Origin: a virus
Length of the DNA: 5,971 nt
Direction: 5' to 3' (one strand)
IMG/VR virus record: IMGVR_UViG_3300045988_005587
Coordinates: 1-5,971 of that record
Shown here piece after piece: positions 1,505 to 4,612 of the stretch. How positions within the stretch are numbered: position 1 is the first letter of the stretch; each line of letters opens with the position of its first letter. The translations under genes and the position numbers were made by a program. The notes under the pieces are model-generated. The model had not been told where the DNA came from, ran no database searches, and saw only the letters and a list, made by a program, of their open reading frames with translations.

Positions 1505-1837
1505 ATGGGAAAACCAAGAATAATCGAGAAAAGCCATAACGTGGGATTCTACGTGATGGAAGCCTATGAAGGCAAAACAATAGAACAGAGGTGCCGGGAA
1601 ATGGTGGAAACGGGTGAGCCAATCAAGGATACATCACCGTTAATATATACACCAAAAGAAAAAGGAGTAAGACCTGAATACAATGTACGAGCGGACAAGT
1701 GGGATATTGCTCAGGGAGCAATGGACGCGGTGAATAAGGAAAGGATTGCCAAGGGACAACAACCTCCTAATGTGAACAATGGAGAAGAAACGCCAATGGG
1801 CGCGCCTGAATCGAATCAGGCTGGGCAGCCGAGCTGA
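1505..1837 (+). CDS. Hypothetical 110-aa acidic protein between VP1 and VP2. It may be an internal scaffolding (VP3-like) protein.
   Basis: I prefer the ATG at 1505 over the track start at 1439, which lies inside VP1. The 12-mer AACAATATGGGA around this ATG (1499-1510) is repeated exactly at the VP2 start (1931-1942). The scaffold idea rests on size, charge and position and is only a guess. Confidence 0.6.
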   Translation: MGKPRIIEKSHNVGFYVMEAYEGKTIEQRCREMVETGEPIKDTSPLIYTPKEKGVRPEYNVRADKWDIAQGAMDAVNKERIAKGQQPPNVNNGEETPMGAPESNQAGQPS

Positions 1838-1936: not shown

Positions 1937-3022
1937 ATGGGATTCTTAGATTTTTTAGGAAACGGAGGGTCTGGCCTAATTACAGGACTTGCCAACACAA
2001 TAACAGGAGCCGTACAGAACAAGAAAGCACTGGCATGGCAGAAAGAGCAATGGCAGCAATCAATGGATTACGGTCGGGAGATGTGGGAGAAACAGAACGA
2101 GGCAGAAAATGAACGTATGGCACTGCAGAACCAGTGGAACAAGGATGCAGCAGCGCAGTCACAGCAGTATGCTAAAGAGATGTTTGACTATACGGGTTAC
2201 GAGAACCAGGTAAAACAGATGAAGGCCGCAGGACTGAATCCAGCACTGATGAACGGTGGCGGAGGTTCAGCAGGACAGGCAAGTGCAGGAGCTGAAGTAC
2301 AGCCTGCTCAGGCATTCCAGCCAATGGGCATTCAGATGGCATTACAGGCACAGCAGGTAATGGCCAACACTCAACTAGCTAATGCTCAAGCTCAAAAAAC
2401 AAGAGCTGAAGCCACGGCACAGAACATGCAGAACCTGATAGGCAGCAGCATAGACTTAGCTCAAAAGATTGGCGAGATAGGGAAAACAAAGCAGGAAAAG
2501 AAAAACCTGAAGGCTACATATGACAAGACAGTGAAAGAAGTCGAGATGGTTCAGGAAGAGGTTAATAACCTTATGCTACAGGGAGATATACTGAAAGAAA
2601 ACAAAGAGCTGCTTGAATTCCAGAACGGAGTGAACAGGATTATCAAGAATGGAGTATACTTCGATAGCAAGGGCAAAGAGGTAAATTGGCAGGAGGCGGT
2701 ACTCATAAGGTATTTCGGACCTCTCGGCAAGGAAATGTCACAGTGGGAGAAAGACGAAAAACAGGCATTGTTCGACAAAGGTGTCCTGGAGCGTCTGATG
2801 AATGACATAGATGCCATTGCAACAGGTAAGGTTAACGAGTACTCACTGTCAGGAATGAAATTTGACTTAATGCAGAAACAGTGGGAAAGAGAAGACTTCG
2901 AGCTGGAACAGGACAAAGCAGCATCCAATCTGCTTGAGGAGCTGACAGGCGAAGGAGAATATGCGAGATTGTTAGGCAAATTCTTGAAATTACTGTTAAG
3001 ATTCAACAAAGGCCGCAAGTAA
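1937..3022 (+). CDS. VP2: Microviridae minor capsid / DNA pilot protein (VP2, H-like), 361 aa.
   Basis: It has a Gly-rich hydrophobic N-terminus (MGFLDFLGNGGSGLITGLANTITGAV). The motif QVKQMKAAGLNPALM matches the AGLNP signature I recall from microvirus VP2 proteins. A Q/A-rich segment is followed by a K/E-rich, heptad-like C-terminal half. I prefer the ATG at 1937 over 1910 because of the shared AACAATATGGGA start context. Confidence 0.8.
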   Translation: MGFLDFLGNGGSGLITGLANTITGAVQNKKALAWQKEQWQQSMDYGREMWEKQNEAENERMALQNQWNKDAAAQSQQYAKEMFDYTGYENQVKQMKAAGLNPALMNGGGGSAGQASAGAEVQPAQAFQPMGIQMALQAQQVMANTQLANAQAQKTRAEATAQNMQNLIGSSIDLAQKIGEIGKTKQEKKNLKATYDKTVKEVEMVQEEVNNLMLQGDILKENKELLEFQNGVNRIIKNGVYFDSKGKEVNWQEAVLIRYFGPLGKEMSQWEKDEKQALFDKGVLERLMNDIDAIATGKVNEYSLSGMKFDLMQKQWEREDFELEQDKAASNLLEELTGEGEYARLLGKFLKLLLRFNKGRK

Positions 3023-3321
3023 GTCGCGCGCGTACGTATATCGCACACGCACGGAATCAACTTGACGATCATATTTTGGGCGTCTCCCTACGGGCCGGGC
3101 TTTCCGGCTCAGACAAATGCCCTACGGGCATACTCGCCTGCAATCCCTGACGCACTATGCAGAATTCGCTACTATGTGGCGCGCAATCGCCGCGCGGCTA
3201 GCATACATAACAACAAGAGGTCGGACCACCTGAAGATGATAGCATCATCGGAAGAAGTTTACGACCTCTTATTGTTATGTATGAATATTATATTAAAGTA
3301 AAACTTAAACAAATTATAATT
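3023..3321 (+). other. GC-rich, hairpin-dense noncoding region between VP2 and Rep. It is a candidate replication-origin or regulatory region.
   Basis: Hand count for 3023-3200 gives 104/178 G+C (58%) in an otherwise AT-rich genome. Hairpins: 3092-3110 (gggccgg/gcttt/ccggctc with one G-T pair), 3117-3131 (atgccc/tac/gggcat) and 3202-3283. The 10-mer CCCTACGGGC occurs twice (3086-3095, 3120-3129). CAACTTGA lies at 3058-3065. Confidence 0.7.
3202..3283. repeat. Long imperfect inverted repeat: 22-bp arms with one mismatch and a nested 6-bp hairpin.
   Basis: Arm 3202-3223 (catacataacaacaagaggtcg) pairs with 3262-3283 (cgacctcttattgttatgtatg). The only mismatch is C3214/A3271. The nested hairpin is gatgat 3235-3240 / agc / atcatc 3244-3249. 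Confidence 0.9.
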
Positions 3322-4263
3322 ATGTGCCTGTATACTAAGTATTTATTGAACAAAAAGTATTTACCGACAAAGAAAAATGAACATAATCCGCCAGTATGCC
3401 ACGATGAAAGGCTAAGATATGTACCGATAAAGTGCGGAAAGTGCATGGAATGCCGAAAACAGAAAAAAAGAGAATGGTATGTACGACTGTCTGAAGAGCT
3501 AAAAAGACACAAGGGAGCATTATTCCTGACTCTGACATTCAATGAAGATATGTATGAAGAGACGCGCAAAGCCGTGAATGCAGGAATCCATCCGACCTAT
3601 GAAGAGGAGAATGATATGTGCCGTTATGCAATAAGACACTGGTTGGAACTAATACGGAAGAGAACAGGAAAATCCGTCAAGCACTGGGTAATTACCGAAA
3701 AAGGTGAAGATTATAACCGCATACACATGCACGGTATAGTATGGTGCAGAAAGGAGGATGTAGACGCATGGCGTTACGGATATACCTACATAGGGGACTA
3801 TGTCAACGGCGAGACAATCAACTACATTACCAAGTATATGCTGAAAATCAACGAAAATTGTCCTGAATTCGAGGGGAAAGTATTCTGTAGCCAAGGCATA
3901 GGAAGAGGTTACGAAAAAAGCACAAATGCAAGACGAAACAGATATCAGGAAGAACGTACTATCGAGACATACAAGACAGCGGACGGACGAGAGCTGCCAA
4001 TGCCAAAGTACTACCACGACAAGATATACTCAGAAGAAGAGCGCGAAAAGTTATGGATTATCAAGCAGGAAAGGGGCTACAGATACATAGGAGGTGAAAA
4101 GTGCAGTACAGAAGACCTCGAAGAATGGGACAACCTGACAAGATACTATCAAAGACGGGGTGTAGAAGTGTTTGGAGACAGACCCGACGAATGGGAGAAA
4201 GAAAAGCAGCGCAAACGTCTGGAGCGTATGAAAATCGCCAGGCGTCGGATGCACGGAGGTTAA
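3322..4263 (+). CDS. VP4: Microviridae replication initiator protein (VP4/gpA-like HUH rolling-circle endonuclease), 313 aa.
   Basis: RCR motif 1 is FLTLTF (3523-3540). Motif 2 (HUH) is HMHGIVW (3724-3744). Motif 3, with two tyrosines, is YITKY (3823-3837). An N-terminal Cys cluster reads CH-x13-CGKCMEC. I prefer the ATG at 3322 (MCLYTKY...) because the upstream ATG at 3277 sits inside the right arm of the 22-bp stem. Confidence 0.9.
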   Translation: MCLYTKYLLNKKYLPTKKNEHNPPVCHDERLRYVPIKCGKCMECRKQKKREWYVRLSEELKRHKGALFLTLTFNEDMYEETRKAVNAGIHPTYEEENDMCRYAIRHWLELIRKRTGKSVKHWVITEKGEDYNRIHMHGIVWCRKEDVDAWRYGYTYIGDYVNGETINYITKYMLKINENCPEFEGKVFCSQGIGRGYEKSTNARRNRYQEERTIETYKTADGRELPMPKYYHDKIYSEEEREKLWIIKQERGYRYIGGEKCSTEDLEEWDNLTRYYQRRGVEVFGDRPDEWEKEKQRKRLERMKIARRRMHGG

Positions 4264-4321
4264 TAACCTGTTGATAACCTATCAAAATCGGTTAATAAAC
4301 CTGTTAATAAGTTGTTGATAA
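4258..4321 (+). repeat. Five phased copies of GTT(A/G)ATAA, organised as two roughly 20-nt direct repeats plus one extra copy. The array begins at the Rep stop codon.
   Basis: The octamers lie at 4259-4266, 4270-4277, 4291-4298, 4303-4310 and 4314-4321, with spacings of 11, 21, 12 and 11 nt. The larger units are GGTTAATAACCTGTTGATAA (4258-4277) and GGTTAATAAACCTGTTAATAA (4290-4310). Confidence 0.85.
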
Positions 4322-4369
4322 AAAGATGACTTAAAATTTGGAATATTGAAATATTTTAATAGGAAGGAA

Positions 4370-4466
4370 AGTTATGAACAATGCAAATAAATAAATGAAA
4401 AGTTATGAACAAAGTTATGAACAGGATAAATGATTGAAAATAAATGAATTAACATAGTTATGAACA
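4370..4466 (+). repeat. Iteron-like array: four exact copies of AGTTATGAACA interleaved with three copies of ATAAATGA.
   Basis: The 11-mer lies at 4370-4380, 4401-4411, 4413-4423 and 4456-4466. The octamer lies at 4391-4398, 4426-4433 and 4440-4447. Degenerate relatives are TATGAACA at 4590-4597 and TTATGGAACA at 4611-4620, the latter spanning the ATG at 4613. Confidence 0.85.
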
Positions 4467-4549
4467 GTTTCAACAGGCTATCATATACATATAGATTTAT
4501 TTTAATAGAAAAAAATATTATTAGATTATAATAGAATTTTGTTCAAAAT

Positions 4550-4580
4550 TTTGTGTTTTCAAAAACAATGCCTACATTTG
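4550..4580 (+). promoter_or_regulatory. Candidate Bacteroidota-type promoter: -33 TTTG, 19-nt spacer, -7 TAnnTTTG.
   Basis: TTTG lies at 4550-4553 and TACATTTG at 4573-4580, 33 nt upstream of the ATG at 4613. It is the only TAnnTTTG match I found in noncoding DNA and the only one with a correctly spaced upstream TTTG. Confidence 0.5.
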
Positions 4581-4612
4581 TAATGTAAATATGAACAATT
4601 AAAATAACAATT

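Follow-up and report, generated by a model that had tools for sequence, protein, structure and literature searches.

The DNA analysed here (the window, 5,971 nt, virus record IMGVR_UViG_3300045988_005587) holds a circular microvirus genome of 5,894 nt plus a 77-nt terminal overlap, with every gene on the + strand. Between the VP2 stop at 3022 and the Rep ATG at 3322 lies a confirmed gap of 299 nt (3023-3321), which is a composite non-coding cassette, compositionally foreign, structurally conserved and modular. Its 78-nt core belongs to an uncurated family of structured cis-elements that we found in more than 100 other microviruses, chiefly from the gut, and in Bacteroides conjugative plasmids. 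Since the DNA of microviruses and that of conjugative plasmids both arrive single-stranded, we propose, with a probability of roughly 0.4, that the core is a folded single-stranded DNA (ssDNA) entry signal, a Bacteroidota counterpart of Frpo/ssi or of the M13 complementary-strand origin. In this proposal we infer that DNA is the nucleic acid that folds and RNA polymerase its reader, as well as which strand is active and with which polarity the plasmids are transferred.

Alignments of the copies reveal two invariant strands, GGGCTnTCCGGCTCAnACAnAT and ATACTCGCCTnCnATCCCT, separated by hairpins that vary in sequence yet stay paired (helices P1 to P4, Table 1). The three mismatches that interrupt P3 (3100-3144, 3103-3141 and 3105-3139) are invariantly pyrimidine-pyrimidine. 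The covariation among homologues that the initial annotation had suggested looking for supports this fold in two independently gathered sets: 89.8% of the cells are paired in the first, with 12 pairs changed on both sides, and 87.8% in a set retrieved independently from metagenomes, with 13 such pairs, values equalled by none of 500 shuffles in either case. An unbiased mutual-information scan places the pairs 3084-3149, 3102-3142, 3119-3129 and 3081-3152 at the top.

The functional unit is thus not the stack of local hairpins originally described, but a 78-nt core with a long-range fold. Two of the three stems then listed stand, namely 3117-3131, which is P4 and covaries, and 3202-3283, whereas the local stem 3092-3110 does not: it is predicted at the energy minimum, but shows no compensatory change and is broken in many homologues, and the evolutionarily supported partner of 3097-3108 is the distant segment 3136-3147. 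The duplicated 10-mer CCCTACGGGC is indeed present, exactly, at 3086 and 3120. It reflects P2 and P4 sharing their sequence by chance in the window and three relatives and is not a conserved repeat, as in other copies the two hairpins differ from each other.

Pairing in the core is strictly of the Watson-Crick type. Wobbles account for none of 1,221 pair cells in the metagenome set, and about five G-U pairs occur in some 950 cells of the first. Such a lack is unusual for RNA and expected for short DNA helices, which speaks for DNA, or for a constraint to which both strands are subject. Counts of G-U versus A-C pairs were tried as an indicator of the folding strand and are uninformative, because wobbles are nearly absent on both strands.

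The distribution of the element is sporadic. When the entire genome was compared by megablast with 50,697 phage records, a single match was returned, confined to window positions 3072-3234; with a more sensitive search, the same ~85 nt were recovered in 11 microviruses that are otherwise unrelated to it. Once viral and metagenome contigs had been scanned with sequence patterns and then with a covariance model, the set comprised 140 copies, 89 of them unique, in two protein-divergent microvirus lineages and at three intergenic positions. In the window's lineage the element lies in sense, between VP2 and Rep or after Rep; in the second lineage (Rep of 450-580 aa) it is antisense to all genes, in the capsid-VP2 or the VP2-Rep gap. 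Short-form modules that are nearly identical are found in either orientation relative to genes, and the element is a horizontally exchanged module. Two close relatives of the window (L065, 2843-2934, and L068, 5307-5398; loci are given by L numbers) carry a variant core that keeps P1, P2 and the outer part of P3, while the internal loop and P4 are swapped for a partly duplicated segment holding TTTCCGCTGCAAT twice; these score 45-47 bits versus 95 for the window. Among 185,579 species genomes scanned, the sole hits were one chance match and, in a Chitinophaga assembly, a microvirus fragment, so that an origin from a host attachment site is rejected and the element is not a copy of a host gene or RNA gene. 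No description of it was found in the literature on microviruses and plasmids.

Some of these loci deserve separate mention. The Chitinophaga fragment (L054, Chitinophaga silvisoli NZ_QTJV01000043.1, 3,476 bp) contains capsid and Rep genes, with the element in antisense just upstream of rep; the assembly derives from a cultured strain and points to a Bacteroidota host outside the gut. Five gut metagenome contigs of 21-129 kb (L175, L195, L211, L144 and L210) combine microvirus genes with the element and may represent integrated microvirus prophages in Bacteroidales genomes. Contigs L036 and L038/L145 (8.2-8.6 kb) are longer than a single genome, and the element is present in them in two slightly differing copies; dimers may explain this, or assemblies in which two co-occurring variants were merged.

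The family extends to conjugative plasmids. A sequence labelled 'Bacteriophage sp.' (L007, MT836100.1, 3292-7678) carries a copy scoring 82 bits and encodes a Dam methylase, TraN (DUF4138) and an M23 peptidase; it is part of a Bacteroidales conjugative plasmid or element. Of 80 metagenome loci, about 20 share this context, on gut contigs as long as 120 kb, and the element is present in two plasmids from cultured Bacteroides uniformis, pBuniCL06T06-1 and pBUN1. Upstream of it lie genes of the type IV secretion system, traM, traN, the M23 peptidase gene and three small genes; downstream, and co-directional with it, are genes for a ParB-like protein, DpnD/PcfM, DUF2958 and an N6 methylase, followed by a C5 methylase or a PAPS-reductase-like protein. 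Each replicon has one copy, as no further ones were found in the plasmid. The cargo after the element varies between L007, L212 and L237 (ParB-like/methylase operons, a truncated PAPS-reductase gene, a PD-(D/E)XK nuclease), and the site looks like a recombination hot spot. The element is a poor candidate for the parS site of the neighbouring ParB-like protein, since its stems covary although they vary in sequence.

About 10 kb past the element, pBuniCL06T06-1 carries a BfmA/BtgA-type mobilisation operon, towards which the ParB/methylase operon points. Frpo elements are found in the leading regions of plasmids, where orphan methylases abound and which oriT separates from the relaxase (PMC11541004). 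The layout would fit an analogous position, provided that oriT is located upstream of the BtgA-type operon.

An ssDNA signal that is strand-specific would not be expected on opposite strands, and we therefore compared the strand asymmetry of the sense and antisense classes. On the coding strand, the AT skew at four-fold sites is +0.56 in the sense class (n=55) and -0.56 in the antisense class (n=48); the window itself has a value of +0.45, and all 75 Rep relatives have positive values. An excess of NNT at synonymous sites is an accepted mark of the single-stranded strand in ssDNA phages (PMC3278643), and in our calibration phiX174 (-0.64), Chp2 (-0.38) and SpV4 (-0.40) conform, being T-rich, while phiMH2K is A-rich at +0.30, which makes the skew an imperfect proxy for the packaged strand. 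Given this mixed calibration, we added polarised substitutions and intergenic skew. Per site on the coding strand, G>A versus C>T substitutions amount to 0.52 vs 0.19 in the sense class (p=7e-5) and 0.15 vs 0.27 in the antisense class (p=0.07), and C>A versus G>T to 0.16 vs 0.02 in the sense class (p=0.002), with no significant difference in the antisense class. Intergenic AT skew, computed with the element masked, is +0.18 in the sense class (45/45 positive) and -0.11 in the antisense class (31/33 negative). Since intergenic DNA shows the asymmetry as well, mutation accounts for it rather than codon selection.

Orientation follows this asymmetry without exception, in 103 genomes and also in 94 genomes divided into six placement/lineage groups: the strand that accumulates T is, in all carriers, the one bearing the reverse complement of the element. 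In the window and loci L063-L139, the composition of neutral sites mirrors the canonical pattern of ssDNA phages. Nothing decisive was found in the literature on the virion polarity of gokushovirus-like phages.

The complementary strand also carries a promoter-like sequence. The reverse complement of the invariant loop CTCAAACATAT is ATATGTTTGAG, which contains TAnnTTTG, the -7 promoter box of the primary sigma factor of Bacteroides/Bacteroidota (PMC7366714). The box is perfect in 49 of the 89 unique copies, that is, in 32/38 of the antisense class, 5/6 of the plasmid type (37/44 for these two together) and 12/45 of the sense class. By geometry, it would be unpaired and belong to the arm that does not serve as template when transcription exits via P3 and P1 towards the downstream genes. 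A scan for sigma-70 boxes gave none.

From these data a possible mechanism can be outlined. The active form would be folded ssDNA of the strand complementary to the one written for the window, in which P1, P3 and P4 would form an irregular hairpin. On its non-template arm, the asymmetric internal loop would offer a pre-melted -7-type box, which in most copies reads TAnnTTTG, and host RNA polymerase could start there and transcribe outwards through P3 and P1 into the flank. The resulting RNA might prime synthesis of the complementary strand, as at the M13 origin and the ssi/Frpo of the F plasmid, or might constitute early transcripts of the downstream genes, ParB-like/methylase in the plasmids and rep in the window. 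The 3' domain and the long hairpin at 3202-3283 would then be accessory structures, or a stop site for the primer RNA.

Several observations weigh against this proposal, in addition to the phiMH2K value given above. The core alone folds no more stably than shuffled sequences (z about -1.4 to -1.7), and the supported fold as naked ssDNA reaches -1 to -5 kcal/mol versus about -11 for the minimum-energy structure. The same holds for RNA (-12 to -15 vs -23 to -26 kcal/mol), the complementary strand of the core being consistently better by about 3 kcal/mol. Lying so far from the energy minimum, the supported fold needs a protein partner or non-canonical pairs. The apparent invariance of the conserved strands is inflated, most copies having been fetched with patterns derived from them; the divergent copies L142, L062, L065 and L068, found by BLAST or by the model, still keep the pairs. 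Concerning the promoter-like box, the window's own loop TTTGTCTG departs from TAnnTTTG at two positions and 33 of 45 sense-class copies are imperfect; the loop follows the pattern T[A/T]TGT[T/C]TG, in which the nn of the box is invariant while the A and one T vary, and no -33 box is evident. On the plasmid side, oriT and the polarity of transfer are read from gene layout, and the downstream genes differ in pBUN1. In the window's gap, the long hairpin 3202-3283 tolerates about ten G-T/G-U wobble cells on the + strand. The core is also deleted in L063, L064 and L066, whose Rep is ~90% identical to that of the window; the deletion boundaries differ between L063/L064 and L066, and these three relatives, as well as L065 and L068, keep the 5' block, part of the 3' domain, the long hairpin and the AT-rich leader. 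Finally, the strand proposed to be active in the window is the non-coding one, which is conventionally not packaged.

This last point bears directly on the window copy, for which the proposed model holds only if the non-coding strand is packaged; failing that, its role must be different or reduced. A speculative and rather improbable extension is that the window's whole lineage consists of negative-sense microviruses, packaging the strand complementary to their genes, and that the element lets RNA polymerase transcribe rep directly from incoming virion DNA, just as leading-region genes of plasmids are transcribed from Frpo, while priming the second strand. If true, this would reconcile all copies of the element and explain the mirrored neutral sites, substitutions and intergenic DNA of the lineage. 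The alternative is that another strand-specific process sets the asymmetry, and that the sense-class copies, including that of the window, work differently.

A motif resembling the phiX174 viral-strand origin also lies in the gap, on the + strand: CAACTTGA at 3058-3065, 13 nt upstream of the core, a position that likewise sits awkwardly with activity of the other strand. We take it to correspond to the first 8 nt of that origin, CAACTTG/ATATTAATAAC. The TTGA around which it is built is kept in close relatives, as (C/A)TTGA(T/C)G; an 8-mer match of this kind is expected by chance about 0.2 times per genome.

The element might instead act as a structured RNA in the written sense, either a cis-acting leader of the downstream genes or a small RNA gene with its own promoter, acting through a tertiary structure for which the conserved internal loops would be the basis. 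A supported fold that is not the energy minimum and has invariant loops and mismatches is what protein-stabilised or tertiary-stabilised RNAs display, an AT-rich promoter-like sequence with TTTG adjoins P1 in all contexts, and in the plasmids and the sense class the element lies upstream of genes in their own orientation. Its foreign GC content and patchy presence would also suit an accessory 'moron' cassette. Nevertheless, we regard this explanation as rather doubtful. G-U pairs are close to zero despite abundant compensatory change, the spacing between TTTG and P1 differs between plasmids and phages, and orientation follows mutational asymmetry, not gene direction. Moreover, half of the microviruses would carry the RNA antisense to every gene, and transcription units on the complementary strand are considered highly unusual in Microviridae (PMC3394797).

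Nor did the search of Rfam covariance models, which the initial annotation had advised as a check for structured RNA, yield a family. None of the 4,227 models of Rfam 15, which include ribozymes, STAXI and phage and plasmid motifs, matches the core at the gathering threshold, in scans run permissively (E-value up to 10 for the window and up to 1 for the plasmid and antisense-class copies). The weak matches obtained are microRNA-like and fall on long hairpins, with none over the core. A tRNA/tmRNA scan of the window found none.

Less probable still, and in our view unlikely, is that the + strand, which is the coding and conventionally packaged one, folds and is read by primase, PriA or RNA polymerase as a complementary-strand origin. 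The strong folding of this region and its intergenic position next to rep are what such an origin would have, and phiX174 and G4 use hairpins of this kind, with similar proposals made for other microviruses (PMC9865509). The wobbles of the long hairpin on the + strand and the phiX174-like motif just upstream agree with it as well. However, the promoter-like box is on the other strand, and about half of the carrier phages have the element on the opposite strand, so that the packaged strand would need to differ between the classes. Besides the three relatives with ~90% identical Rep, the core is missing from all 69 Rep relatives at 37-48% identity; it is therefore not the origin of the window's lineage and fails as an essential element. 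The initial annotation had proposed a complementary-strand origin and had counted absence from close relatives as evidence against one. Such absence is what we observe, while initiation on folded ssDNA stays the likeliest kind of function.

Quite improbable, finally, is a mobile or hitch-hiking site, that is, an oriT-like nick or recognition site through which Bacteroides conjugative elements would mobilise the replicative form of the phage, or a recombination or selfish module with no role in phage replication. It would account for patchy presence among close relatives with variable boundaries, for three intergenic positions and both orientations relative to genes, for near-identical modules in unrelated phages and conjugative plasmids, and for the plasmid copy lying at a junction with variable cargo. 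The conserved ATCCCTG resembles ATCCTG, which we take to be the MOB-P nick consensus, and is a lead for this reading only. Against it, orientation is non-random and tracks asymmetry in every genome examined, the deletion junctions of close relatives show no terminal inverted repeats or target duplications, each replicon has a single copy, and the mobilisation genes of pBuniCL06T06-1, hence its presumed oriT, are ~10 kb away. As for the protein-coding alternative raised by the initial annotation, the 79-aa open reading frame (ORF) 3062-3301 is discarded: its frame is intact in only two of eight close relatives (L024 and L051) and frameshifted or stopped in the other six (L021, L065, L068, L064, L066 and L063), differences by codon position (8/3/3, 8/5/6, 8/6/8) show no third-position, synonymous bias, and a Pfam search gave no match.

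Coming back to the folded ssDNA entry signal, its closest functional analogues are the Frpo/ssi elements, the M13 complementary-strand origin and the exchangeable single-strand origins (sso) of rolling-circle plasmids, none of which is a homologue and in none of which can membership be claimed. The ssDNA promoters of the Frpo/ssi kind have reportedly been described in F-like and IncI conjugative plasmids. In Proteobacteria, hairpins of this kind on the transferred strand allow RNA polymerase to make both primer RNA and early transcripts of the leading region (PMC11541004). Like them, the element is non-coding, lies on DNA that enters single-stranded, would fold into an irregular hairpin with mismatches (essential in Frpo/ssi) and heads a co-directional establishment or anti-restriction operon with, for example, methylases; the proposed reader, host RNA polymerase, and the proposed dual role in primer RNA and early transcription are also the same. 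It differs in size (~78 nt versus ~300 nt for Frpo), in having no sigma-70 -35/-10 duplex, in having as candidate box the -7 motif of Bacteroidota, placed in an internal loop and not in a stem, in being shared with phages, and in that its role is a proposed one. It shows no sequence relationship to them. Homology to known Frpo/ssi is not expected, because hosts and promoter types differ.

In ssDNA phages, M13/fd ori(-) is primed by RNA polymerase and G4 oriC by primase, while phiX174 uses an n'/PriA site. The element resembles these origins as a folded intergenic hairpin of small ssDNA phages, on which host enzymes would start the second strand. However, they are lineage-specific and located on the packaged, coding strand, whereas the element is patchily present within its lineage, is also carried by plasmids and can lie on either strand relative to genes. 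While the phiX174 n' site and the G4 origin are expected on the packaged strand of every lineage member, we found it missing in relatives and on opposite strands in the two classes.

The sso elements (ssoA, ssoT, ssoU and ssoW) offer a parallel for its modular behaviour: they too are cassettes that can be exchanged, and their nucleotide sequence is conserved between replicons whose Rep proteins are unrelated. Like the element, they are dispensable, depend on orientation with respect to the displaced strand, are linked to host range and have conserved unpaired motifs in an imperfect hairpin. The hosts, however, are here Bacteroidota rather than Firmicutes, and the function of the element is a proposed one. 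With regard to the RSB/CS-6 motifs of ssoA, no TAGCGT was found in the loops of P2, P4, the 3' domain or the long hairpin, and the nearest match to CS-6, TAGCG(T/A), is TAGCAT at 3199-3204, between hairpins. STAXI and similar motifs of gut Bacteroidota are said to lie near anti-restriction, SSB and integrase genes. Like the element, they are conserved non-coding motifs with structure, carried by mobile elements of Bacteroidota beside genes for DNA handling or anti-restriction, and they are suspected to act as ssDNA, but their architecture is different, and no Rfam model, STAXI included, matches the window, plasmid or antisense-class copy.

The core is embedded in a cassette with several other parts (Table 1). 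The initial annotation described the gap as 58% GC, which holds for 3023-3200 (58.4%, the richest 180-nt segment of a genome with a mean of 40.9% and a standard deviation of 7.7%) but not for the gap as a whole (47.2%), the final 40 nt being AT-rich. The 299 nt fold far better than shuffled sequences, with z-scores of -5.2 as DNA and, as RNA, -4.7 for the + strand and -4.9 for the - strand; none of 200 shuffles folds as well. Most of this excess energy is supplied by the long hairpin.

Table 1. Position of the core element, of the other parts of the cassette and of the main genes in the window.
Feature	Position	Strand	Remarks
Core structured element	3078-3155 (78 nt)	+	covariance-model match 3076-3156, 95.1 bits
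P1, closing helix	3080-3084/3149-3153		
P2, variable hairpin	3086-3088/3092-3094		missing from the short form of the element
P3, long-range interrupted helix	3097-3108/3136-3147		pyrimidine-pyrimidine mismatches
Asymmetric internal loop, invariant	3109-3116 opposite 3132-3135		
P4, variable hairpin	3117-3122/3126-3131		
Invariant internal loop, complementary strand	3110-3117	-	TTTGTCTG in the window, TATGTTTG in most other copies
5' GC-rich block	3023-3061		imperfect hairpin 3026-3037/3043-3054 (CGCGCGCGTACG / CGCACACGCACG)
3' domain of the long form	3156-3200	+	stem ~3179-3183/3191-3195, conserved loop CAATCGCC
Long imperfect hairpin	3202-3283	+	inner hairpin 3235-3240/3244-3249; ends 38 nt before the Rep ATG
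AT-rich leader	3284-3321	+	directly upstream of Rep ATG 3322
Major capsid protein	~5378 through wrap to 1493	+	
Small ORF	1505-1837	+	
Pilot protein VP2	1937-3022	+	stop at 3022
Rep	3322-4263	+	ATG 3322; Pfam REP_ORF2-G2P
21%-GC region	4264-4612		followed by small ORFs

The 5' block begins with GTCGCGC and ends with GGAATCAAC, which might reflect mimicry of a CRISPR repeat. It is near-invariant in eight close relatives and conserved in close relatives only, and thus outside the widely conserved element family. The three C-A mismatches of its hairpin on the + strand are G-T wobbles on the - strand, where a 12-bp stem is predicted. The 3' domain, with a DNA fold of -8.5 kcal/mol, is kept in long-form copies whose Rep is merely 55-65% identical, and its stem shows compensatory changes from GCGC/GCGC to GAGC/GCTC (L026, L033 and L044), CGTC/GACG (L064) and AGC/GCT (L068). 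The long hairpin folds as DNA at -21 kcal/mol, with outer arms of 22 nt each (3202-3223/3262-3283) that are 95% complementary; 91% of its cells are paired in nine close relatives, among which variation is too low for covariation to be assessed. A stem of at least 15 bp is present downstream of the core in 83-94% of the microvirus copies, versus 52-57% upstream. In L003 (bajarodmic virus 65, antisense class), a hairpin of ~190 nt (3961-4147) lies just downstream of the element, has weak Rfam matches to microRNA precursors and parallels that of the window. The AT-rich leader is kept in all nine close relatives, including those that have no core, and might hold a dif/Xer site.

Outside the gap, two further non-coding regions were noted. 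Directly after the Rep stop, the AT-rich stretch 4259-4612 (21% GC) contains iteron-like direct repeats: AAAGTTATGAACA at 4368, 4399 and 4411, with degenerate copies near 4455 and 4586, GTTAATAAnnTGTTGATAA at 4259 and 4303, and GGTTAATAA at 4258 and 4290. The stretch may serve in Rep binding or as a viral-strand origin, or it may contain promoters. A second intergenic hairpin cluster (1838-1936, between the small ORF and VP2) comprises GTGCGTACTTCGGTACGCAC, TATATATCGAGTTATATATA and CGCTTTTGGAAAAAGCG, flagged as terminator-like on the - strand; the segment 1887-1944 is 81% conserved even in L069 and L070, whose Rep is 50% identical.

To our knowledge, no complementary-strand origin or ssDNA promoter has been defined for microviruses outside the phiX174/G4 group, nor for conjugative elements of Bacteroidota, and the Frpo surveys that we know of cover sigma-70-type elements only. 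The link to plasmids and the strand-asymmetry result make the finding richer than what was initially proposed for this region. A motif common to the commonest gut ssDNA phages and to Bacteroides plasmids would be a testable handle on how foreign ssDNA is first read in the dominant gut phylum, and would document the exchange of non-coding modules between phages and plasmids. In addition, the orientation of the element is an internal marker of strand identity, and exposes a large lineage in which asymmetry is reversed relative to genes. The textbook assumption that all microviruses are positive-sense thereby becomes testable by a simple strand-specific experiment.

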